Source: Promethearchaeota archaeon
Lineage (GTDB): Archaea > Asgardarchaeota > Lokiarchaeia > Sigyniarchaeales > SOKP01
Assembly: GCA_048941285.1 (NCBI GenBank)
Contig: JBHLNS010000059.1
Span: 1-17,935 of the forward strand
Length of the DNA: 17,935 nucleotides
Reading direction: 5' to 3'
Below the pieces are notes generated by a model. That model was given only the letters and a program-made list of their open reading frames with translations. It was not told the origin of the DNA and did not search any database. Position numbers and translations under genes: made by a program. Below, one piece after another: positions 6,493 to 17,935 of the stretch; position 1 is the first letter of the stretch; every line of letters starts with the position of its first letter.

Positions 6493-8643
6493 ATGGTTAA
6501 TAACGATATCTCTTTTTTTTTTGACCCAAAAAGTATTGCTGTGATTGGTGCTAGCGACAAAGAGGGGAAAGTCGGTAACACAGTATTAAAGAATATAATT
6601 AATTCGGGTTATAAAGGTAAAATCTTTCCAATAAACCCAAAAACTAGGGAAATTAATGATTTACCATGTTATAAAAGTGTTTTAGATGTACCAGGAGATA
6701 TAGATATTGCCATTTTTGTTATTCCAGGAAAATTTGTGAATAGCGCTGCAGAAGAATGCGGTAAAAAAAAAATAAAAGGAATAATTATAATTTCTGCAGG
6801 ATTTAAAGAAGTTGGTGGAGAAGGCGTCAAAAGAGAAGAAGAATTAATCTTAATTGGTAAAAAATATAAAATGAGAATTTTAGGGCCAAACTGTCTAGGT
6901 CTAATTAGTTTATCCTATAATGGCTCATTTGCTGCAGAAACGCCTAAAAAAGGTGGTATCGCAATGATATCACAATCAGGGGCTATGCTTACGGCGATGA
7001 TGGATGTGAGTATGAATGAAGCATATGGATTTTCATGTAATATAAGCTTAGGTAATAAAGCAGACTTAGGGGCTGTAGATTTCATAAAATATCTTGCTGA
7101 TGATGAAAATACAAAAGTTATCCTATGTTATTTAGAAAGTATTAAGGATGGTGATAGATTTCTTGAAGTTTTACCAATAGCAACAAGGAAAAAACCGATC
7201 ATAATATTAAAGTCAGGTGTGAGCGAAGCTGGTGCAAGAGCCGCTTCAAGCCACACTGGAGCATTAGCAGGAACTGACATCGCCTATGATTTAGCATTTG
7301 AAAAATGTGGAGTGATCAGAGCAAAAACCATCGAAGATTTATTTGATTATGGTGAAGCTTTCCTTTATCAACCAATTCCTAAAAAAAACTCTTTTGCTAT
7401 TATTACGAATGCAGGAGGTCCGGGAATTATAGCTACAGATGCTTTTGAGCGTGAAAATTTGAAATTTTCAAGTTTTTCAGAACCAATTCTTCATTCTTTG
7501 AGAGAAAATCTACCATTAGAAGCAGCAATTTTTAATCCAATTGATATTGTAGGAGATGCAACCCCAAAAAGATATGAATTTACAATCAAAACTGTTTTTG
7601 GTATAAATTCAGGTCAAAATTTTGGTGATATAACAACAGAAGGCGCTTTAATAATTTTAACTCCCCAAGCTCAAACTAAACCAACAGAAGTTGCGAAATT
7701 AATTTATGATCTATCATCAAAATATTTGAAAACCAAACCAATCGTATGTTCTTTCATTGGAGGAAAAAATATTTTCGAAGGCAGAGAATATTTAAAGCAA
7801 AATCATATTCCATGCTATGATTTTCCAGACAGAGCGGCTCATTCATTAAAAACCTTAACAAAACGAGGCAATTATTTGATGAGTACTGCATTAAATGAAT
7901 TAGAAATTCTTTCATTTAAGGTAAATAAAAAAAGAGTAAAAGAAATCTTTTCTAATGCTAGAAAAGATGGTAGGATAGTATTATTAAGTTATGAAACAAG
8001 TGAGGTTTTTGATTGTTATGGCATTAAATCGCCGAAATCACGATTAGCTCAAACTCCAAGACAAGCAATGGAGCTACAATCTGAAATTGGAAAGTGTGTT
8101 ATGAAAATCGTAAGCCCTAATATCATACATAAAACTGATGTTGGGGGGATTTTATTAAATATTGAAACAGTGCAAGATGCTTTTGAAGCATATATACAAA
8201 TTGTTAATAACGCAAAGAAGTTTGGCCCTCAAAATGCTAAGATTTATGGTGTAGAAGTACAACAAATGATAGATTTTAAATCTGAAGAAAAAGTAAATGA
8301 AATAATTGTAGGGATGTCTCGAGATCCTCAATTTGGTCCATTAATAATGTTTGGAACTGGTGGGATCTATGCCAATTATATTAAAGATGTAGCATTCGCC
8401 TTGTCATATAAATTTACTAGATCTAATGCTAAAGCGCTAATAAGCAGTACAAGACTTCACAGTCTTTTAGAAGGTGTTAGAGGAGAGCCAAGATCTGACA
8501 TTGAAGCAATAATTGATGTTTTATTAAGGCTTTCACAGTTAGTGAATGATTTTCCTGATATTGTAGAGTTAGATATTAATCCCCTTTTAGCTTTTGCAAA
8601 AGGTTATAGTGCTGTAGATATTAAAATTACAATAAATAGATAA
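6493..8643 (+). CDS. acd: Acetate/acyl-CoA ligase (ADP-forming), fused alpha-beta subunits
   Basis: CoA-binding PKSIAVIGAS, ILGPNCLG, SQSGA, SLGNKAD, phospho-His motif ASSHTGALAG, TNAGG, NPIDIVGD; C-terminal ATP-grasp with HKTDVGG, DPQFGP and ELDINPL; no GNAT domain. Confidence 0.94.
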   Translation: MVNNDISFFFDPKSIAVIGASDKEGKVGNTVLKNIINSGYKGKIFPINPKTREINDLPCYKSVLDVPGDIDIAIFVIPGKFVNSAAEECGKKKIKGIIIISAGFKEVGGEGVKREEELILIGKKYKMRILGPNCLGLISLSYNGSFAAETPKKGGIAMISQSGAMLTAMMDVSMNEAYGFSCNISLGNKADLGAVDFIKYLADDENTKVILCYLESIKDGDRFLEVLPIATRKKPIIILKSGVSEAGARAASSHTGALAGTDIAYDLAFEKCGVIRAKTIEDLFDYGEAFLYQPIPKKNSFAIITNAGGPGIIATDAFERENLKFSSFSEPILHSLRENLPLEAAIFNPIDIVGDATPKRYEFTIKTVFGINSGQNFGDITTEGALIILTPQAQTKPTEVAKLIYDLSSKYLKTKPIVCSFIGGKNIFEGREYLKQNHIPCYDFPDRAAHSLKTLTKRGNYLMSTALNELEILSFKVNKKRVKEIFSNARKDGRIVLLSYETSEVFDCYGIKSPKSRLAQTPRQAMELQSEIGKCVMKIVSPNIIHKTDVGGILLNIETVQDAFEAYIQIVNNAKKFGPQNAKIYGVEVQQMIDFKSEEKVNEIIVGMSRDPQFGPLIMFGTGGIYANYIKDVAFALSYKFTRSNAKALISSTRLHSLLEGVRGEPRSDIEAIIDVLLRLSQLVNDFPDIVELDINPLLAFAKGYSAVDIKITINR

Positions 8644-8652
8644 TAAAAAGAT

Positions 8653-9723
8653 ATGAGAAAAATGGTAAAGATATTTTATTTTAGCTCATTGAATGAAAGA
8701 GCCGGAAAGAGTTTTCTATCAATAGGTTTTATTCAAAAGTTAAAAAAAGAAGGCAAAAAATTTGCTTATTTTAAACCTATAGGTGTTCCCAAAAGTGCAT
8801 TTACACATAAAGCAGATCCTGATGTTGGTTTTATCTTAAAAACAATTTATCAAACAGACCATCCTTATGATTTTATTTCACCTATTTCAATTCCAGATGC
8901 ATATTATATTGATCTAATTGATGCCACTAAAAAAGAAGAATCATTACAAAAAATTAAAGATGCTTATGAACAAATCACTAAAGATATGGATTATATTGTT
9001 ATTGAAGGTAATCCAAGTATTAGAAAATTTATTAGGATAGGATTAGACGATGTGAGTATTGCCCAAACCCTAGGAATTAATGAATTAATATATGTTTCGA
9101 CAGAATCCTCTGATCGAGCAATTGATAATATATTTTTCACAAAAAATTATTTTGAATACCGTAAAGTCTCGATCAAAGCTATTTTATTTAATAAAATCGA
9201 TTTTGAGTATATTGCCCGAATTAAAGAACTTACAGAAGACCATATAAACAGATATGATATTCCTGTTTTAGGAATAGTAGAAAAAAGTTTAGAATTATTT
9301 TCACCTCGAGTAAGTGAAATTCAAGAACAAATAGGTGGAGAATTAATAAATGAGCAAGCATCATCAGGGTTAAATAATTTAGTCGAAACATTTCTTATTG
9401 GTGCTATGAATGCACAAGCAGCTTTAAAATATTTACGACAAGTGAAGAGAGCCGCATTCATTACAGGAGGAGATAGAACCGATATGGCTATGGCTGCTTT
9501 AGATCAAGATGTATCTACACTGATTTTAACAGGTTTTATTCAACCTGATATGAGTGTCATCACTTTAGCAAATAAAAAAGGGATACCAATAATAATAAGT
9601 CCTTCTGATACTTATACTACCATGAGAAATCTAGAACGATTAAAACCAGGCATTCAAGAAGATGAAATGGAAAAAGTTCTTGAACTGATTGAAAAAGAAA
9701 TTGATTGGAATTTGATATTATAA
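8653..9723 (+). CDS. Phosphotransacetylase N-terminal-like protein (BioD-like P-loop plus DRTGG domain) without the Pta catalytic domain
   Basis: RAGKS P-loop, YFKPIG, IVIEG, ILFNK, FLIGAM, ITGGDRTD, LILTG; 356 aa; 9 nt downstream of acd. Confidence 0.88.
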   Translation: MRKMVKIFYFSSLNERAGKSFLSIGFIQKLKKEGKKFAYFKPIGVPKSAFTHKADPDVGFILKTIYQTDHPYDFISPISIPDAYYIDLIDATKKEESLQKIKDAYEQITKDMDYIVIEGNPSIRKFIRIGLDDVSIAQTLGINELIYVSTESSDRAIDNIFFTKNYFEYRKVSIKAILFNKIDFEYIARIKELTEDHINRYDIPVLGIVEKSLELFSPRVSEIQEQIGGELINEQASSGLNNLVETFLIGAMNAQAALKYLRQVKRAAFITGGDRTDMAMAALDQDVSTLILTGFIQPDMSVITLANKKGIPIIISPSDTYTTMRNLERLKPGIQEDEMEKVLELIEKEIDWNLIL

Positions 9724-11596: not shown

Positions 11597-11884
11597 TTGA
11601 TAATTATGGCTAAGACAAAACAAGAAAAAAATGAAAGAAGAGCTATTTATTTTGATGTATTTTGTGGTATGACATCATCCAGTATAGCATTAACCGGAAT
11701 TGCTTATGCTATTATTAATCAACGAGTCGCTAGTATAGGGTGGTTTACAATTCATATGACATTCTGGATTGGTTGGTTATTGTTTTCATTATTCATATTA
11801 AGTTTAGGCATTTTTACTTGGTATAAAGAAAAACATTATGATGATTATGAACAAAAAAAAAATTTAAAAGCACCAATAGTTTGA
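11597..11884 (+). CDS. Small membrane protein with 2 TM helices (likely start ATG 11606)
   Basis: Two hydrophobic segments flanked by charged termini; follows the aminotransferase co-directionally. Confidence 0.7.
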   Translation: MIIMAKTKQEKNERRAIYFDVFCGMTSSSIALTGIAYAIINQRVASIGWFTIHMTFWIGWLLFSLFILSLGIFTWYKEKHYDDYEQKKNLKAPIV

Positions 11885-11889
11885 AACAC

Positions 11890-12384
11890 TTATTTATCCG
11901 GTGCTTTTTTTCCTAACCATTTTTCATAGAATGTATCAATATCAGGTAGAAAATTAAAGATTGTTGGATATCCTGGAGGTACTGCTTCAACATCTAATAA
12001 AGTAAAACAACTTGGACAAATATATTCTCGAAGCTCCTCCCAATTAGGATCACATCCCATATCTTTAGGATAAAGTTCTTCAATATCTTTAGCTGTATCT
12101 CTAACTCTCACCCGACATTTAGTTTTCCAATTTTCGCGATAATCTCCAAATTCAAATCCGCAGTCACATTTTACTATTCTCTGTCCTTCTTTTGAAACAA
12201 TATAAAGATGTTCATGTAGAGGTAATATTATTTTTTCATTCCATGGTACCCGTCCTTGTAAAATTTCTATAATCTGATCAAATCTTTTTGCATCCTTTCT
12301 CCCACTAATAATTGGTTTTAATTCTTCCCAAGATAATTTTCCATCAATCATTCTTTCCAAAGTTTTTATATCGTATGATACCAT
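11890..12384 (-). CDS. acxC: Acetone carboxylase gamma subunit
   Basis: LIDG-like MIDGKLSW, KDAKRF, LHEHLYIV, Zn ligands KCDCG and CPSC, ENWK, PDIDTFYEKWLG; 164 aa; third gene of the operon. Confidence 0.93.
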   Translation of the reverse strand: MVSYDIKTLERMIDGKLSWEELKPIISGRKDAKRFDQIIEILQGRVPWNEKIILPLHEHLYIVSKEGQRIVKCDCGFEFGDYRENWKTKCRVRVRDTAKDIEELYPKDMGCDPNWEELREYICPSCFTLLDVEAVPPGYPTIFNFLPDIDTFYEKWLGKKAPDK

Positions 12385-14598
12385 TTATTTCACCTCCATA
12401 TCAAAACTTTCAGGTAATTTCCAGAACATTTTAAATTCTTTTGCCCAATTTTTTGATAATTTAAGACTTTCTGAATACATTAATCTTACAGGATCACTTA
12501 ATCTGTTTTCAATTATTTTCTGTTTTTCATTTTCCCAATATTCCTCAAACATTACTGATTTTTCTCTCCTTTGCTTTTTTAATTCTTCTTTTTGAATCTG
12601 TGTAGCTTTTTCATCTATCTCCCACTCTTTTTTATCATCATTGTATTTAGCAACTATCCCATAAACATTTTTAACAATACCTTCAGTATAAAAACCATCA
12701 TCAAGATCTTGTTTTATTTGTTCAATTTCCCGTTCGAGTGGATCACCGTATCCAGGGCCTCCACACAAGAAATAATAGAAAAGATCATAATTATCAAATG
12801 TAATTGGATAAATACTACAATAAGGCTTTCTTGTTATATTTCCTTTTAAAAGACGTTCAAATTCACCATTACTTGGATCCGGATCACCAAGAGGATATTC
12901 ACTCCGATTTTTAATTATTTCCTGCATATTTGTATTTTTTGCATATAACCGATATCCCGTTGCGTTGGGATAACCGCCATGCATTCCTCCTGCTCCATGG
13001 AATACCAATCCTTCTCTGGCTCCAAAGAAATCTACATCTTTTGAATTAGCTACCATACCTACACCTTCGTAATTTGCTCCTCCTCTATATTTTCCATGTC
13101 CAGACAAATTAGGTTTAACTCTTCGTGATAGATAAGGTACGCCCCCTTGAAATAATTCCCACGTTTCTACATCTCCTAGATCTGATTCAGGATTCCACAT
13201 TGCATATCCCCAATTTAGACCATCTCGGACAGCACTTGCTCCAAAACCTTGACCACTTATTTCAAAAGTTGATAATGACCATCTTTGTCCCATGAGTGGC
13301 CCATCTGAATAAATTCCACCACCTTGGATAGCATCTCCGGTAAAAGGGTATCCTGAAACAACTTCTTCTCTAAAACCTCGAGAAAATAACCCATAAGAAA
13401 TACACTTCATCATCCCAGTGTATGCAGGAATCAAATTACCCCAAGGAGCTTGGTAAGAGAGATAAATATCACCTGGATTACACCATGAACCTTTAGGATA
13501 TTCTTTCTCTACAGCGAAATATGCACCATCATTTACTTTATCTGCATAGATTAAAATTTGAGTCAATAGAACCCATTGACCTCCTTCCATCGCTCCTTTG
13601 TCAGCATTCATGGGATTATGTCCAGGACCACTCGCACCATCAAATGAGATCGACATTTTCCCAGTTTCATTAATAATAATCTCTATCGGCAAGTTAGTTA
13701 TTTTATCAATTTTTGCTCTTGGTTGCCAAGCTTCAGACTTTTGTGGCATATCAAAAAAACCTGCTGCCCTATACTTACCAGGTATTAATCGCTCTTTTAC
13801 TCTTTCTTGAAAAATAATCCTTCCTTCTTCAATCGCTTCTCGAATAAAGCGTTTGTAGTAATTAATTCCTTCTCTTTTAATAAATTCCAAAACAGCATCT
13901 CTGATCATCAAATTTCCTGCTAATCTACATTTCTCATCTAATTCCCAATACATAGGAGTTCTTACAGATCTTTTGGCACCAATCATATGATCTTTCGAAA
14001 TTTTATCATTGGATCCAATTTTTCTGCATGTATAATAGATTCCGTCATCGAAACGTTGTATAGCGGGGACTAGATCATGACCTGGAGTAATGCCTCCCGT
14101 ATCAATTTGATGAGTGACTCCGCCCGCCCAACCGACTAGCTCATCTTCCCAAAATATCGGAATTAATGTTTGAACATCTGTAGTGTGAACATTTCCACAA
14201 GCGGGATCATTATTAAGGAAAATATCTCCTGGGTTGATTCCTGGATCATCTTCATATTCTTCTCTAATCATAAACTTTATAGCTTCGCTCATAGTATGAA
14301 CATGGACTAGTATTCCAGTTGATACAACAATTGAGTCACCCTCAGGAGTATAAAACGCGAAACATAATTCTCCAATTTCTTTAACAATTGGTGACGCAGC
14401 TACATGTAATGCAGTTTCTCTAGCAGAAACAAGTGCACCTCTCAATGAAGCATAATTACGTTCAAATCGAAAAGGATCCTCTTCTTTTAAAGATAATTTA
14501 TCAAGAGCATAATATCGACCGGATTCTACAAATAATTTTTCACTTTCTTGAAGCATTTTTTTTAATGTCTTTCCATTCCACCCTAATGCCTTTTCCAT
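12385..14598 (-). CDS. acxB: Acetone carboxylase alpha subunit (hydantoinase B/oxoprolinase family)
   Basis: LGWNGKTLK N-terminus, AASPIV..GELCF, STGILVHVHTM, GNVHTTD, GGVTHQIDTG, WNPESDLGD, GKYRGG, GGPGYGDPLER; 737 aa. Confidence 0.92.
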   Translation of the reverse strand: MEKALGWNGKTLKKMLQESEKLFVESGRYYALDKLSLKEEDPFRFERNYASLRGALVSARETALHVAASPIVKEIGELCFAFYTPEGDSIVVSTGILVHVHTMSEAIKFMIREEYEDDPGINPGDIFLNNDPACGNVHTTDVQTLIPIFWEDELVGWAGGVTHQIDTGGITPGHDLVPAIQRFDDGIYYTCRKIGSNDKISKDHMIGAKRSVRTPMYWELDEKCRLAGNLMIRDAVLEFIKREGINYYKRFIREAIEEGRIIFQERVKERLIPGKYRAAGFFDMPQKSEAWQPRAKIDKITNLPIEIIINETGKMSISFDGASGPGHNPMNADKGAMEGGQWVLLTQILIYADKVNDGAYFAVEKEYPKGSWCNPGDIYLSYQAPWGNLIPAYTGMMKCISYGLFSRGFREEVVSGYPFTGDAIQGGGIYSDGPLMGQRWSLSTFEISGQGFGASAVRDGLNWGYAMWNPESDLGDVETWELFQGGVPYLSRRVKPNLSGHGKYRGGANYEGVGMVANSKDVDFFGAREGLVFHGAGGMHGGYPNATGYRLYAKNTNMQEIIKNRSEYPLGDPDPSNGEFERLLKGNITRKPYCSIYPITFDNYDLFYYFLCGGPGYGDPLEREIEQIKQDLDDGFYTEGIVKNVYGIVAKYNDDKKEWEIDEKATQIQKEELKKQRREKSVMFEEYWENEKQKIIENRLSDPVRLMYSESLKLSKNWAKEFKMFWKLPESFDMEVK

Positions 14599-16769
14599 TA
14601 TGATTTCACCTCCATATGGAATATTCTATGTTCATCGATTTTAACTTTATAACCTGGAGGAACAACAAGAGTTGTAGCTGGTGCTTCAACAATAGCAGGG
14701 CCTATTATCACATTTCCAGAATTAATTAATGCCATCTCCCATAATGAAGCCTCATGCCATTTACTATCCCAATAAATATCTCTCGATCCTTTTGAAGCAT
14801 TGTCATTCGGCTTTTCTGTGAACGTACTACGTTGCGGTAATTTAGGTTTCGGTACAGGGACAATTCCCGTACCAATGCATTTAGTTATATGGTAACCCAA
14901 TTCTGGACTTTTAGTTCCTCTTTTAAAAATTTGTTCAAAAAGTTCATCATAACGATGCGTGATTTCTTTTAAGTCAGGTGAATCATATCTTTGTAGAGCA
15001 GCAGAATAATCAATAGTTAATTCTTCTACTTGAGATTGTACTTCTAAATCATCTAACATTCCGAAATATTGTAGACGTAGAGAAGGCTTAAAAATCATTT
15101 CACTTGGATCCCTTCCTTCATCCTCAAACTCCTTAATAATATTGTTCTTCAATTCCTTCCAAGTTGAACTTAGAATAGAAGCAACAAATCCAATCATACT
15201 CCCGTCTGGAGGAATAACTAGATCAACTGATTTTTCATGTCTATATGAATGATCAGCACAAGCGCAACCAAAAGCCGAGAATGCAGGAGCCCATTCTGGT
15301 ACCAATATATTCTGAAAGTTCAAGCCTTTTGAATAACCAGCTACATGTAAAGGTCCTCCACCTCCAAATGAGATTAAGGTATAATTTTCCGGTCTAAAGC
15401 CTAATCCTTGGATCATACCATTGAGATGGTTTTTCATATTAATTTCAATTAGATCTAAAGCACCTCGAGCCGTATCATGAGGATCTGCTTTGAATGGCTC
15501 TGCTAATTGTTGTTCAATGTATTTCAAGGCTCGACCTTTATTTAATAAAACCTTACCACCAAGAAAATATTCTGGATTCAGGTAGCCTAAAATTAAACTA
15601 CAATCAGTCATTGTAACTGTTTCTACACCAGATTGTTCATTACAGACACCTATTTTATAACCTGCGCTTTCTGGTCCGAACTCTAATCGCCCTGAAACAT
15701 CGTTATACCTCACATACATACCTGTACCTGCTCCTATTGAATCTAATGCGATCATGGGAATATTTAAAATAAATCTTCCGAGTGAACTTTCCCACTTAGT
15801 AGGAACATATCGTTCCATGACTAATCCGACGTCAAAACTTGTTCCTCCAACGTCACTAGAAACAAGATTCTTTATTCCATATTTCTCAGCGATAAATCGA
15901 GTACCAATCATACCTCCTATTGGCCCTGAGACCATAGTCGGTATTAATGTTTTATGATATGGAGACATTGTACCACCATATGTTGTCAATATTCTTAAAG
16001 GGGCAGAAATCCCTTTCTCTTTCATTGTTTCAGCTATTCTTATCAATTGCTTTCTTGAAGGTTCAGCTGCGTATTGTTCGATAATTATGGCGTTTAATCT
16101 TGGTGTTTCACCTCTCACAGGATTATGTTCGCAAGATAAAATTATAGGGATCTTTTTCCCTTTTTCTTCCATTACCTTTTCAGCAATTGCTTTTACTTGT
16201 AATTCATGACTTGTATTCATATAGGAACATAATAAACATACACAAATACTATCTACATTCATTTCAAGCAAGTCTTCAACAACTCTTTTAGCATCCTCCT
16301 TATAAAGTGGTATTAGCTCATCACCCCAGAAGTTAATTCTTCCACGGACACCCTTAATTTGTTTTCTTGGTATTAAGGGTTGAGGATGTTCATGTTCTCT
16401 TGCGTGTAAACGCCCACCATAATCGAGATAAATCCAACATTGCAATGCACGGCCAAGCCGATGTAAATCTTCAAATCCAGAATTAACAATTACCCCTATA
16501 TTACTATTACCTTGTCTTTCCAGAAGCCTATTGACCATAGCGGTACCAGAATATACTAATGCCTCAATTGAATGACCAGAAGCTTCTAATGAAGTATTCC
16601 ATTGTTCTAATGCGTCTCTAATTGAATTTAAAATACCTTCAGATTCATTTTCTGGAGTTGTTTGTGCTTTTCCTATAACAAAAACACCTTCTTCATCAAT
16701 TATGAAAGTATCTGACATTGTACCCCCAGTATCAAAAGCCATAGCTACTAATTTTTTAGATTTTGACAT
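14598..16769 (-). CDS. acxA: Acetone carboxylase beta subunit (hydantoinase A/oxoprolinase family, ATP-binding)
   Basis: DTGGTMSDTF, GKAQTTP, YSGTAMVNR, SGPIGG, SDVGGTSFD, DSIGAGTG, GPESAG, FGGGGPLH, FSAFG, GPAIVE; 723 aa. Confidence 0.93.
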   Translation of the reverse strand: MSKSKKLVAMAFDTGGTMSDTFIIDEEGVFVIGKAQTTPENESEGILNSIRDALEQWNTSLEASGHSIEALVYSGTAMVNRLLERQGNSNIGVIVNSGFEDLHRLGRALQCWIYLDYGGRLHAREHEHPQPLIPRKQIKGVRGRINFWGDELIPLYKEDAKRVVEDLLEMNVDSICVCLLCSYMNTSHELQVKAIAEKVMEEKGKKIPIILSCEHNPVRGETPRLNAIIIEQYAAEPSRKQLIRIAETMKEKGISAPLRILTTYGGTMSPYHKTLIPTMVSGPIGGMIGTRFIAEKYGIKNLVSSDVGGTSFDVGLVMERYVPTKWESSLGRFILNIPMIALDSIGAGTGMYVRYNDVSGRLEFGPESAGYKIGVCNEQSGVETVTMTDCSLILGYLNPEYFLGGKVLLNKGRALKYIEQQLAEPFKADPHDTARGALDLIEINMKNHLNGMIQGLGFRPENYTLISFGGGGPLHVAGYSKGLNFQNILVPEWAPAFSAFGCACADHSYRHEKSVDLVIPPDGSMIGFVASILSSTWKELKNNIIKEFEDEGRDPSEMIFKPSLRLQYFGMLDDLEVQSQVEELTIDYSAALQRYDSPDLKEITHRYDELFEQIFKRGTKSPELGYHITKCIGTGIVPVPKPKLPQRSTFTEKPNDNASKGSRDIYWDSKWHEASLWEMALINSGNVIIGPAIVEAPATTLVVPPGYKVKIDEHRIFHMEVKS

Positions 16770-16772
16770 AAA

Positions 16773-16781
16773 ATTTCACCT
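16773..16781 (-). promoter_or_regulatory. Shine-Dalgarno site (AGGTGA) of acxA
   Basis: TAGGTGAAATTTTATG on the minus strand; complementary to the archaeal 16S 3' end (AUCACCUCC). Confidence 0.75.
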
Positions 16782-16824
16782 ATTTTTTTGAATAATATAT
16801 AACAAATTTAATTCTCTTTCGAAT

Positions 16825-16856
16825 TATTTAAGTTTTATATTTTTATAAATATAAAA
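16825..16856. promoter_or_regulatory. Back-to-back TATA boxes of the divergent acx and aminopeptidase promoters
   Basis: CTTAAATA (minus, 16825-16832) lies 56 nt before the acxA ATG; TTTATAAA (plus, 16842-16849) lies about 31 nt before ATG 16881; a 10-4-10 inverted repeat spans 16833-16856. Confidence 0.5.
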
Positions 16857-16880
16857 ATGAGATGAATGATTTTATAGAAC

Positions 16881-17935
16881 ATGATAAATACCTTTTATGA
16901 AAGATTAGCAAAATTAGCGATTAATTATTCTACAAAAATAGAAAAGGGAGATAGAGTTTGTATTACAGGACCTGATTTAGCTAAAGAGCTTTTTCAAGCC
17001 ATATATGTTGAAACTATTAAAGCTGGAGGTCATCCTTTTCTACTTGTTCAAATTGAAGGAACTCAAGAATTAAGGTTAAAGTTTGCCTCTGAAGAACAGT
17101 TACTTTACGTGGATCCTTTATTTAAATCAATTATTAAAGAATTTGATTCCTATATTGTAATATCTGGTGACTATAATACTCGAAAAATGAGTTTAATTGA
17201 TCCCAAATTATTAGCAAAAATACAAGGATCACCTGATAATAGAAAGATATGGGACACTTTGATGGAACGAATTGCTTCAAAAGAACTAAAATATCTTATG
17301 ATCCCTTTTCCATGCAATGCAAATGCTCAAGAAGCGAATATGGATCTTTTTTCGTATTTTGAATTTGTTCAGAAAGCCTTATTCCTTGATAAAGAAGACC
17401 CTGTTAAGGAATGGCTAGAGATGGAGAAAAAACAAGATAAGATTTGCGAAAAACTAAAAGATACTGAAAAAATCCAAATTATTGGTGAAGATACTGATTT
17501 AATAATGTCAGTTAAAGGGAGATTATGGATAAATGATTGTGGTCATCTTAACTTACCCGATGGTGAAGTTATGAGTGCTCCCATCGAAAACTCTGTTAAT
17601 GGGCATATTCGGTTTACATATCCAGGTATATTTCAAGGGAAAGAAATTCAGAATATATATTTAGAGTTCAAGGATGGAAGAGTAGTAAAATTTTCTGCAG
17701 AAAAGGGTGAACAATTACTAGAAGAACTATTAAAAATCGAAAATGCAGATATAATTGGAGAAATTGCTATTGGTACTAACTATGGCATAAAAAAATTTAC
17801 TAAAAATATTCTTTTCGATGAAAAATTGGGTGGAACAATTCATTGTGCTCTTGGATCCGGAATTGAAGAAGCTGGTTCAAAAAATAAAAGTGGGTTACAT
17901 TGGGACATAATAAAAGATATGACTATCCCAGGTTC
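16881..17935 (+). CDS. Peptidase M29 family aminopeptidase (AmpS/PepS/aminopeptidase T type), 3'-truncated by the window edge
   Basis: Translated by hand at several positions: MINTFYERLAKLAINYSTKIEKGD, NLPDGEV, GEIAIGTN, LFDEKIGGTIHCALG, GLHWDIIKDM. Absent from the ORF track, most likely because no stop codon falls inside the window. Confidence 0.92.
   Translation, partial: MINTFYERLAKLAINYSTKIEKGDRVCITGPDLAKELFQAIYVETIKAGGHPFLLVQIEGTQELRLKFASEEQLLYVDPLFKSIIKEFDSYIVISGDYNTRKMSLIDPKLLAKIQGSPDNRKIWDTLMERIASKELKYLMIPFPCNANAQEANMDLFSYFEFVQKALFLDKEDPVKEWLEMEKKQDKICEKLKDTEKIQIIGEDTDLIMSVKGRLWINDCGHLNLPDGEVMSAPIENSVNGHIRFTYPGIFQGKEIQNIYLEFKDGRVVKFSAEKGEQLLEELLKIENADIIGEIAIGTNYGIKKFTKNILFDEKLGGTIHCALGSGIEEAGSKNKSGLHWDIIKDMTIPG

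Follow-up and report, generated by a model that had tools for sequence, protein, structure and literature searches.

Bacterial acetone carboxylase spends ATP to join CO2 to acetone, and to our knowledge ATP-dependent ketone carboxylation has been characterised so far in bacteria only. The Asgard archaea are the archaeal lineage closest to eukaryotes. No discussion of acetone carboxylase (Acx) in Asgard archaea was found in the main texts of openly available papers, and excerpts from papers on acetone carboxylase and archaea held no description of an archaeal Acx. In the available portions of the isolation paper of MK-D1, acetoacetate is mentioned solely among the abbreviations of a pathway, and acetone solely as a solvent for microscopy. 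Some public Promethearchaeota records already carry the name acetone carboxylase.

The enzyme of Xanthobacter converts ATP to AMP and 2 Pi (excerpts of PMC5543143 and PMC4103992). Its published Mn(II) ligands are E89, H150, D153 and H175 of the alpha subunit (PMC12250083 and PMC5543143, both in part), and C74, C76, C124 and C127 of the gamma subunit are its published Zn ligands (PMC5543143, in part). According to the accessible part of PMC13677872, gamma subunits of the PF08882 type are specific to Acx and acetophenone carboxylase (Apc), and the substrates within the family differ: Apc uses acetophenone, whereas Acr of Rhodococcus aetherivorans, an Apc-like acetone carboxylase, uses acetone and also longer ketones.

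The operon and its subunits

The window, that is, the whole stretch of 17,935 nucleotides that was analysed, contains the following features.

16770..16880, minus strand: divergent intergenic region of 111 nt, AT-rich, upstream of beta; predicted promoter and ribosome-binding region
14598..16769, minus strand: acxA-type gene for the beta subunit, 723 aa, HyuA/ASKHA-fold, ATP-binding (from Pfam, PDB scores and motifs)
12385..14598, minus strand: acxB-type gene for the alpha subunit, 737 aa, HyuB-type, with a predicted Mn/Fe site for the C-C bond (from Pfam, PDB scores and ligands)
11890..12384, minus strand: acxC-type gene for the gamma subunit, 164 aa, Zn(Cys)4 (from Pfam PF08882, PDB scores and cysteines)
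11853..11862, minus strand: T10 run, 28 nt past the gamma stop; candidate archaeal terminator

The three ORFs were recovered at the same coordinates as in an earlier, sequence-only reading of this DNA, which had described three coupled genes in the order beta-alpha-gamma. The beta stop and the alpha start overlap by 1 nt (TAATG), and the gamma ATG lies directly 3' of the alpha stop codon TAA. Inspection of the intergenic region, which is AT-rich throughout and is probably the promoter region, revealed GGTGA 8 nt upstream of the beta ATG and TATA-like runs farther upstream. The T10 run lies within the 3' end of a convergent 95-aa ORF and is possibly an archaeal terminator. With an ORF caller, 50 of 64 archaeal loci showed the three genes in colinear order. 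Among the 14 others, two have a full-length alpha and gamma behind a beta gene cut by the contig end (tblastn), and in the remaining 12 the operon is cut at a contig end. Relative to the two closest loci compared (L038 and L039), dN/dS was 0.06–0.11 at a dS of 0.8–1.0, which indicates purifying selection on the operon.

Matches to Pfam were found for beta (Hydant_A_N, Hydantoinase_A and Hydant_A_C, E 2.5e-38, 6.2e-64 and 1.5e-56), alpha (Hydantoinase_B, E 1.8e-68) and gamma (PF08882 Acetone_carb_G, E 2.8e-41, 140.7 bits against a cut-off of 21). When compared with chains of solved structures, beta scored 666 bits (E 5e-199) with Xanthobacter Acx 5m45_B and 312 bits with ApcC; the caprolactamase/oxoprolinase chain 6yra_A gave 206 bits, and N-methylhydantoinase and caprolactamase chains gave 196–206 bits. 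The corresponding scores for alpha were 624 bits (E 2.6e-186) with Xanthobacter 5m45_A, 143 with ApcD, 60 with N-methylhydantoinase and 35 with 6yra_B, while gamma scored 164 bits (E 2.5e-47) with Xanthobacter 5svb_C and 35 bits with ApcB. For the large subunits, E values below 1e-180 over the full length to solved structures answer the question of fold. Scores for the NCBIfam Apc equivalogs were far under their cut-offs (341.6 against 1500, 147.7 against 1500 and 32.6 against 250), and those for the caprolactamase equivalogs were also under theirs (292.9 and 58.6, each against 1000).

In the alpha subunit, E77 (in the motif GEL), H138 and D141 (HTTD) and H163 (THQ) aligned to Xanthobacter E89, H150, D153 and H175, and all four are invariant in 12 of 12 Asgard alpha rows. 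The candidate metal ligands noted earlier in GEL, HTTD and THQ match the published Mn(II) ligands. The exception was HVH, also noted as a candidate ligand motif, where only H99 is conserved; its equivalent, Xanthobacter H111, is absent from the ligands listed in the available portions of PMC12250083 and PMC5543143. The four gamma cysteines that had been proposed to bind Zn (C73, C75, C123 and C126) all aligned to the published Zn ligands C74, C76, C124 and C127. The ATP-binding motifs claimed for beta were likewise found, with DTGGT at 13–17, DVGGTSFD at 306–313 and F402 in the place of the adenine-stacking residue F405 of Xanthobacter, though T388 stands where Xanthobacter has S391. A further pair, alpha K73 and beta D573, was considered as a compensating replacement of Xanthobacter E85 and N578 and was dropped, as outside the Proteobacteria-type rows the alpha position commonly has K, R or T.

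The ligands by themselves cannot discriminate Acx, because in a 42-row alignment the H/D/H ligands are present in all four Apc-like rows, and the 12 rows of the outer clades mostly have them too (D141 in 12, H138 and H163 in 10 each). The position of E77 is E in two Apc-like rows and D in the other two. Eight canonical-group alpha subunits have 160 invariant columns in common; the 12 Asgard rows keep 86% of these, the outer clades 70% and the Apc-like rows 48%.

Relationship to acetone carboxylases and predicted reaction

A phylogenetic analysis of 46 alpha rows with IQ-TREE placed the Asgard sequences in one clade (100/100) nested in a 26-row clade (100/100) that includes the anchors Cupriavidus metallidurans CH34, the alpha subunit of which scored 1296 bits against 5svb_A, Paracoccus and Rhodobacter. 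A FastTree analysis of 99 alpha rows was concordant, and the Apc-like rows formed the outgroup in both trees. The nearest named relatives of the Asgard alpha branch were Sulfobacillus and an Actinomycetes MAG. Tree placement refers to alpha; beta and gamma, judged by identity ranking, rank their relatives in the same order, with identities over the subunits of 49–58% to Sulfobacillus, 43–53% to Thermodesulfobacteriota, 40–46% to canonical Acx and 23–32% to Apc-like proteins. The comparison with Acx, Apc and hydantoinase/oxoprolinase references that the sequence-only reading had proposed groups the subunits with Acx, all three by score and alpha also by tree.

We consider that the operon encodes a biotin-independent, ATP-dependent ketone carboxylase of the Acx family, probably (alpha-beta-gamma)2 in type and acting most likely on acetone, and give this reading a probability of roughly 0.7. 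Carboxylation of acetone or another small ketone appears the most parsimonious interpretation; acetone is the most likely substrate, and butanone may perhaps be used too. The activity described below is predicted from sequence, as are the ATP stoichiometry, the metal, the downstream route and the physiological role. By homology with the Xanthobacter enzyme, beta would bind ATP, ketone and bicarbonate, transfer the gamma-phosphate to the enolised ketone and the beta-phosphate to bicarbonate, and release AMP. The two activated intermediates would pass via an internal channel to the alpha metal site, where E77, H138, D141 and H163 would hold Mn(II) or Fe(II), and would be coupled there to a beta-keto acid (acetoacetate if the substrate is acetone) and 2 Pi. 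Gamma would be a structural Zn(Cys)4 subunit. Downstream, acetoacetate would be converted to acetoacetyl-CoA, and thiolase would yield two acetyl-CoA.

The alpha subunit is only 41–43% identical to characterised-type Acx (Cupriavidus, Paracoccus), so the substrate specificity may differ. A less probable though credible alternative is thus that this is a true carboxylase of the Acx family whose physiological substrate is another ketone, such as a methyl ketone that is longer or functionalised. The Asgard clade and its sisters form a separate branch without a characterised member, there is no alcohol dehydrogenase or regulator beside the operon, and substrates differ within the family (PMC13677872, in part). 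However, in composition and order the subunits follow Acx and not Apc with its five subunits, the clade falls within the branch that has all the characterised-type anchors, and 86% of the canonical-invariant alpha positions are retained.

That the operon instead encodes an ATP-dependent lactam hydrolase of the hydantoinase, 5-oxoprolinase or caprolactamase type, and no carboxylase, is very improbable. The Pfam domains of alpha and beta are common to these enzymes, and 'hydantoinase B/oxoprolinase family protein' is the name in most public records of the protein. A lactam hydrolase would be expected as a HyuA-HyuB pair of high similarity with no gamma, but here a PF08882 gamma subunit is encoded and coupled to alpha. 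The similarity to lactam hydrolases amounts to 35–60 bits for alpha and 196–206 bits for beta, against 624 and 666 to Acx, and the alpha subunit falls within Acx in the tree. It had been claimed that gamma sets Acx apart from hydantoinase/oxoprolinase pairs, and this agrees with the reported restriction of such subunits to Acx and Apc (PMC13677872, in part).

Occurrence, genomic context and possible role

In a survey of Asgard genomes, 70 of the 134 other members of the family had the gamma gene, as did 7 of 265 genomes elsewhere in the phylum. Occurrence in the family is wide but patchy, at about half of the genomes. Thus the operon is unique neither to this archaeon nor, among archaea, to Asgard: it is present in these 70 genomes, and haloarchaeal plasmids carry related ones.

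ORF clustering across 78 related loci found no metabolic gene that stays beside acx across genera, and the neighbours vary between genera. Those seen at the genus level (an M29 peptidase, an alanine aminotransferase, a DRTGG protein and an ADP-forming acyl-CoA synthetase) represent ordinary synteny with no functional link, because congeneric genomes that lack Acx keep them as well. No AcxR-type regulator, secondary alcohol dehydrogenase or acetoacetate-activating enzyme was found adjacent to the operon, in the window or in the related loci. Adjacent acetone genes or a regulator are a contextual trait of bacterial operons and do not define the enzyme.

Elsewhere in its own genome, a two-subunit CoA-transferase, nine thiolase-domain matches and an ADP-forming acyl-CoA synthetase were found. 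The CoA-transferase (PF01144) showed no link to Acx, being present in 60 of the 70 Acx-positive and 55 of the 64 Acx-negative family genomes, and one Acx-positive genome (G170, 92% complete) is without it. None of 17 matches to acetoacetyl-CoA synthetase TIGR01217 reached the cut-off (the best at 296 bits against 520.9), and a search of this genome (94% complete) for acetoacetate decarboxylase PF06314 gave no match. BKACE (PF05853) was found in four copies in this genome and in 123 of the 134 family genomes, 69 of 70 that are Acx-positive and 54 of 64 that are Acx-negative. Ten of the 11 BKACE-negative genomes lack Acx, and the 11 sit in few related groups (all four of g6, five of g1, and one each of g5 and g11). 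With BKACE near-universal in the family, the phyletic link between BKACE and Acx is at most a weak hint. The sequencing runs listed with the operon were 20 DNA-type runs from 10 studies and no RNA run, and are mute on expression either way.

Products of BKACE are known to release acetoacetate. It is conceivable, though doubtful, that Acx serves as a carbon-salvage loop in fermentative, energy-limited Lokiarchaeia and is not an entry for external acetone. BKACE-type enzymes would release acetoacetate during the fermentation of amino acids such as lysine, this would decay spontaneously to acetone, and Acx would recapture the acetone and CO2, possibly at a cheaper ATP stoichiometry or using Fe(II) in place of Mn(II). 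If so, a ketone carboxylase would have a physiological role so far undescribed, and Asgard archaea would be assigned an ATP-dependent biotin-free carboxylation for the first time. The abundance of BKACE genes in these archaea also fits a reversed enzyme that decarboxylates acetoacetate in vivo and conserves the energy as ATP, as an aquifer study has speculated for bacterial Acx that was highly expressed (PMC5264521, in part). We regard this as extremely improbable. If the Xanthobacter stoichiometry holds, ATP would have to be made from AMP and 2 Pi by a single decarboxylation, which general bioenergetics suggests is thermodynamically implausible, and the available part of PMC5264521 states that no in vivo case is known.

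The excerpts of PMC4103992 give the cost of Acx as 2 to 4 ATP equivalents, with at least 3 spent up to acetoacetyl-CoA, and report that energy-limited sulfate reducers take another route. It is hard to balance this cost with catabolic use of the enzyme by a fermentative syntroph, and the operon challenges the textbook view that Acx is unaffordable for energy-poor strict anaerobes. These archaea may have more energy than assumed, the role may be one of assimilation or salvage, or the stoichiometry or substrate may be different. If the predicted Acx is active, ATP-dependent ketone carboxylation would extend to the archaeal lineage closest to eukaryotes, and Lokiarchaeial carbon metabolism would gain a CO2-incorporating, acetoacetate-forming step. 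Being intact, conserved and compact, the operon could realistically be put to a direct test by heterologous expression; the enzymes of Xanthobacter and Aromatoleum have already been expressed in E. coli (PMC10865871).

Host assignment and comparison with known systems

The contig is genuinely Asgard, as had seemed apparent from the sequence alone, and the location of the operon is Lokiarchaeial chromosomal. The GC content of the contig is 30.3% against 29.7% for the genome, and with a tetranucleotide correlation of 0.996 it ranks 55th among the 101 contigs. Several contigs from Promethearchaeota MAGs, including one of 473 kb and one of 212 kb, repeat the gene order around acx, and the genes adjoining related loci include Asgard-typical Ras-family GTPase and LRR proteins. 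Two congeneric genomes that are 100% complete also contain the flanking block, without acx. Of the 78 loci, the 64 archaeal ones were 67–92% identical, and the nearest bacterial loci at most 53%. The chance that a bacterial or chimeric contig was misbinned is next to negligible, since, although at 17.9 kb the contig is short and its bin of 101 contigs has an estimated contamination of 3.4% and three other small contigs that appear foreign, its composition fits the bin, its neighbours are shared with the long MAG contigs and complete congeners, and its closest relatives are archaeal.

The hydantoinase, 5-oxoprolinase and caprolactamase pairs (PDB 7HK5, 6YRA) share the Pfam domains of the large subunits, but they lack gamma and catalyse ATP-dependent hydrolysis, not carboxylation. 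Apc of Aromatoleum aromaticum (PDB 5L9W) and Acr of Rhodococcus aetherivorans also perform ATP-dependent ketone carboxylation and have homologous HyuA-, HyuB- and gamma-like subunits with the H/D/H residues. However, the Apc type has five subunits, including two HyuA paralogues and epsilon, a set without a match here, where HyuA is encoded by a single gene and the operon has no further subunit gene. Relative to Acx, scores to Apc were about halved for beta and 4–5 times lower for the other two subunits.

Another archaeal operon, on a plasmid of Natronorubrum aibiense (NZ_CP045489.1), has the same beta-alpha-gamma order, and its gamma is annotated 'acetone carboxylase subunit gamma'. Its alpha subunit is 42% identical and groups with canonical proteobacterial Acx, outside the Asgard clade, and unlike the operon described here it is plasmid-borne and followed by an acyl-CoA ligase gene.

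The operon most resembles AcxABC of Xanthobacter autotrophicus Py2 (PDB 5M45, 5SVB, 5SVC), with three subunits in the order beta-alpha-gamma that align over their full length, the same metal ligands in alpha, the same Zn cysteines in gamma and, in beta, conserved ASKHA phosphate motifs together with the Phe that stacks on adenine. It shares a major clade of the alpha tree with the Acx of Cupriavidus metallidurans CH34, Paracoccus and Rhodobacter, on a separate Asgard branch. The acx genes of Paracoccus and Rhodobacter have a sigma-54 regulator and an alcohol dehydrogenase adjacent, whereas the Asgard loci are without both. The bacterial hosts of Acx are aerobes, denitrifiers or phototrophs, whereas the host here is an anaerobic Asgard archaeon.

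Organisation of the operon and its host genome

Three ORFs on the minus strand of the window matched exactly the coordinates and beta-alpha-gamma order claimed in a sequence-only reading of this DNA for an acetone carboxylase (Acx) operon.

ORFs of the acx operon
14598-16769, minus strand: beta-type ORF, 723 aa; Pfam Hydant_A_N, Hydantoinase_A and Hydant_A_C
12385-14598, minus strand: alpha-type ORF, 737 aa; Pfam Hydantoinase_B
11890-12384, minus strand: gamma-type ORF, 164 aa; Pfam Acetone_carb_G (PF08882), 140.7 bits against a cut-off of 21

The beta stop and alpha start overlap by one base (TAATG), and the gamma ATG lies immediately 3' of the alpha stop. A relative was encoded in 131 stretches of GTDB species genomes, the best 80 of which, representing 78 loci, were used. 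Of these loci, 64 were in archaeal MAGs (67-92% identity, contigs up to 672 kb) and 14 in bacterial MAGs (41-53% identity). Nearly all the archaeal loci were Asgard-labelled, the others including one 4.4-kb contig labelled 'Bathyarchaeota' and several labelled 'uncultured archaeon'. Beta, alpha and gamma were called as colinear ORFs in 50/64 archaeal loci; of the 14 others, 12 were interrupted by a contig end, and two had a beta truncated by the contig end, with alpha and gamma detected at full length behind it by tblastn. Convergent with gamma is a 95-aa ORF (11597-11884, plus strand) that contains two hydrophobic stretches and matched no Pfam family; it directly follows gamma in 14 of the 64 archaeal loci. 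Because it also persists in a congeneric Acx-negative genome, it is not an operon member.

The host was confirmed as an Asgard archaeon, as the sequence-only reading had supposed. The window spans the whole of a 17,935-bp contig (C99), which belongs to a 3.55 Mb bin of 101 contigs (completeness 94%, contamination 3.4%) and fits it in composition, with a GC content of 30.3% (genome 29.7%) and a tetranucleotide correlation with the rest of the genome of 0.996 (rank 55 of 101 contigs). The best 120 alpha homologues in a collection of 5.8 billion proteins were mostly 64-90% identical. Every organism-named one was Asgard-labelled (Promethearchaeota/Promethearchaeia, Candidatus Lokiarchaeia, Thor-, Hod-, Hermod- or Freyarchaeota), and two were already named acetone carboxylase alpha subunit. 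The gene order of the window (M29 peptidase, acx, 95-aa ORF, alanine aminotransferase, DRTGG protein, ADP-forming acyl-CoA synthetase, cyclophilin, HEAT protein, endonuclease V, MinD-type ATPase) recurs on other contigs, among them one of 473 kb from Promethearchaeota. In other genera, the acx neighbours include Ras-family GTPases and LRR proteins, which are typical of Asgard genomes. A bacterial or chimeric contig was ruled out by GC content, tetranucleotides, the Asgard homologues and the recurring gene order.

Three contigs of the bin (C44, C37 and C27; 2.6-3.0 kb), with tetranucleotide correlations with the rest of -0.46, -0.23 and 0.20, are probably foreign; contig GC in the bin reaches 60%. 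The ADP-forming acyl-CoA synthetase gene in the window (6493-8643, plus strand; best NCBIfam match 4-hydroxybutyrate-CoA ligase, 661 bits, below cut-off) is followed 9 nt on by a gene for an AAA_26 and DRTGG protein (8653-9723, plus strand) that resembles the N-terminal part of phosphate acetyltransferase and lacks the catalytic domain. The two genes were paired in all close relatives examined.

Assignment to the acetone carboxylase family

All three subunits were compared against all PDB chains. Alpha scored 624 bits against Xanthobacter Acx (E 2.6e-186, residues 8-734 of 737) versus 143 for acetophenone carboxylase (Apc), 60 for N-methylhydantoinase and 35 for a caprolactamase-type chain. 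The corresponding scores were 666 (Acx), 312 (Apc) and 206 (lactam hydrolases) for beta, and 164 (Acx) and 35 (Apc) for gamma, to which the lactam-hydrolase comparison is not applicable. In NCBIfam, the acetophenone-carboxylase and caprolactamase equivalogs were matched below threshold only.

The Mn(II) ligands described for Xanthobacter are alpha E89, H150, D153 and H175 (PMC12250083, PMC5543143), and identical residues (E77, H138, D141 and H163) align with them. Three of the four candidate metal-ligand motifs proposed earlier (GEL, HTTD and THQ) were thereby upheld. In the fourth, HVH, conservation is confined to the first His, which the ligand descriptions cited do not list. The four proposed gamma Zn cysteines (C73, C75, C123 and C126) align with Xanthobacter C74, C76, C124 and C127, and the predicted ATP-binding motifs of beta were recovered as both ASKHA phosphate motifs, together with the adenine-stacking Phe (F402, Xanthobacter F405); a Thr occupies the position of Xanthobacter S391. 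In a 42-row alignment, the H/D/H residues were mostly kept in Apc-like and outer-clade alpha sequences too, so the ligands indicate an intact active site rather than Acx identity. The Xanthobacter switch pair alpha E85/beta N578 corresponds to alpha K73/beta D573 in the window. As K, R or T is the common state at this alpha position outside Proteobacteria-type rows, the family as a whole does not share the published E85-N578 contact.

Trees were built for alpha only, using FastTree (99 rows) and IQ-TREE with LG+G4 (46 rows), and their topologies agree. The set comprised named GTDB loci, anonymous 50%-identity cluster representatives, plasmid or chromid anchors (Cupriavidus metallidurans CH34, Paracoccus, Rhodobacter, Sinorhizobium pSymB and a Natronorubrum plasmid) and two Apc-like operons from Rhodococcus and Haloterrigena. 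The CH34 alpha scored 1296 bits against the Xanthobacter structure. The Asgard sequences formed one clade (100/100) with two anonymous representatives as sisters (100/98), followed by a Sulfobacillus/Actinomycetes-MAG group (100/100). Together these were sister (100/94) to a canonical group made up of CH34, Paracoccus, Rhodobacter, Natronorubrum and Thermoleophilia alpha-gamma fusions. The 26-row clade (100/100) that unites both groups has a Thermodesulfobacteriota sequence at its base; outside it are a Sinorhizobium-type clade, several large anonymous clades and, as outgroup, the Apc-like rows. For alpha, the tree therefore bears out the proposed grouping with Acx, and by identity ranking the relatives of beta and gamma fall in the same order. 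Eight canonical-group alpha sequences share 160 invariant columns, of which 12 Asgard rows kept 86%, the outer clades 70% and the Apc-like rows 48%. On every sequence-level criterion tested, the operon belongs to the Acx family, and its branch has no characterised representative. Its nesting among bacterial groups suggests a single old acquisition from bacteria, then vertical descent and repeated loss.

Alpha and gamma were fused (928-972 aa) in eight of nine Thermoleophilia/Solirubrobacterales MAG loci (L100-L108, e.g. L107:9950-12751), L105 having them in separate ORFs. The fused form matches cluster representatives P0124 and P0132 (940 and 980 aa).

Distribution and maintenance in the phylum

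The proposed survey of Asgard genomes was made with PF08882 over 400 genomes sampled from the phylum, 78 of which were positive, the window's own included. Excluding the latter, matches were found in 70/134 genomes of the same family (23/53 of the same genus) and in 7/265 elsewhere: five of six genomes of a second family, carrying as many as three copies, and single genomes of two further families. Genomes G119-G122 of family f21 carry two or three gamma genes each, one of them divergent (~100 bits, 189-195 aa); examples are G120:C28:8678-9013, C34:3052-3387 and C103:7492-7827.

Genomes of the genus are polymorphic for the presence or absence of the operon, whose locus is fixed. Acx-negative genome G207, which is 100% complete, retains all the flanking genes in unchanged order and lacks precisely the M29-acxABC block; opposite window positions 11597-17935, the corresponding locus (G207:C26:98001-118000) has a ~550-bp gap between ORFs 8273-8587 and 9139-9426. 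In comparisons with the two closest loci used (dS 0.8-1.0), alpha and beta had dN/dS values of 0.06-0.07 and gamma of 0.10-0.11; pairs at greater distance were saturated. Given these low ratios, the acx genes are maintained by selection. The sequencing runs listed for the operon included no RNA run, a result neutral as to expression.

Possible role and known relatives

By homology, beta would bind ATP, ketone and bicarbonate and form a phosphoenol-ketone and carboxyphosphate with release of AMP (PMC5543143, PMC12250083). An internal channel would then carry both intermediates to the metal site of alpha for conversion to acetoacetate and 2 Pi, gamma serving as a structural zinc holder. The earlier interpretation as ketone carboxylation is supported as far as sequence goes.

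Candidate downstream enzymes in the own genome are a family-I CoA-transferase of two subunits, with weak Pfam scores (59 and 30 bits), an ADP-forming acyl-CoA synthetase and nine matches to thiolase domains, among them a thiolase/DUF35-type pair; none is linked to acx by position or phyletic pattern. PF01144 was present in 60/70 Acx-positive versus 55/64 Acx-negative genomes of the family. Searches of the own genome yielded no acetoacetyl-CoA synthetase match above cut-off and no acetoacetate decarboxylase. Acetoacetate is also the product released by BKACE enzymes (PF05853), which are encoded at four places in the own genome (G000:C11:26333-27148, G000:C1:7119-7976 and two more) and present in 123/134 family genomes. 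Acx is missing from ten of the 11 genomes without BKACE, including all four of genus g6. This association is only a hint, since BKACE is nearly universal and the negatives represent few related groups.

Xanthobacter spends 2 ATP equivalents on the reaction and Aromatoleum 4, and reaching acetoacetyl-CoA takes at least 3; the sulfate reducer Desulfococcus biacutus is described as lacking acx genes and using an alternative route, energetically more favourable for an energy-deprived metabolism (PMC4103992). Cultured Lokiarchaeia are described as slow, amino-acid-fermenting syntrophs (PMC7015854). With this cost and way of life, growth on acetone by way of Acx would give little or no net ATP. The operon may instead serve acetone assimilation, detoxification or salvage, or act on another ketone; alternatively, the stoichiometry may differ or the energy metabolism may be richer than assumed. 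A question worth experiment is what leads roughly half of one Lokiarchaeial family to retain a costly ATP-dependent ketone carboxylase under strong purifying selection.

Public records name the Asgard proteins in part as acetone carboxylase. Full-text searches, which did not extend to supplements or subscription journals, found no discussion of this enzyme in Asgard archaea and no description of a characterised archaeal Acx. The Asgard operon is not the first archaeal acx-like operon, because an annotated one is found on a plasmid of the cultured haloarchaeon Natronorubrum aibiense (NZ_CP045489.1, 36897-51107). It too has the order beta-alpha-gamma, with gamma annotated 'acetone carboxylase subunit gamma'. 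Genes for a long-chain-fatty-acid-CoA ligase and a VOC protein come next, and 4 kb beyond lies another HyuB gene. Unlike the Asgard clade, the Natronorubrum alpha groups with canonical proteobacterial Acx.
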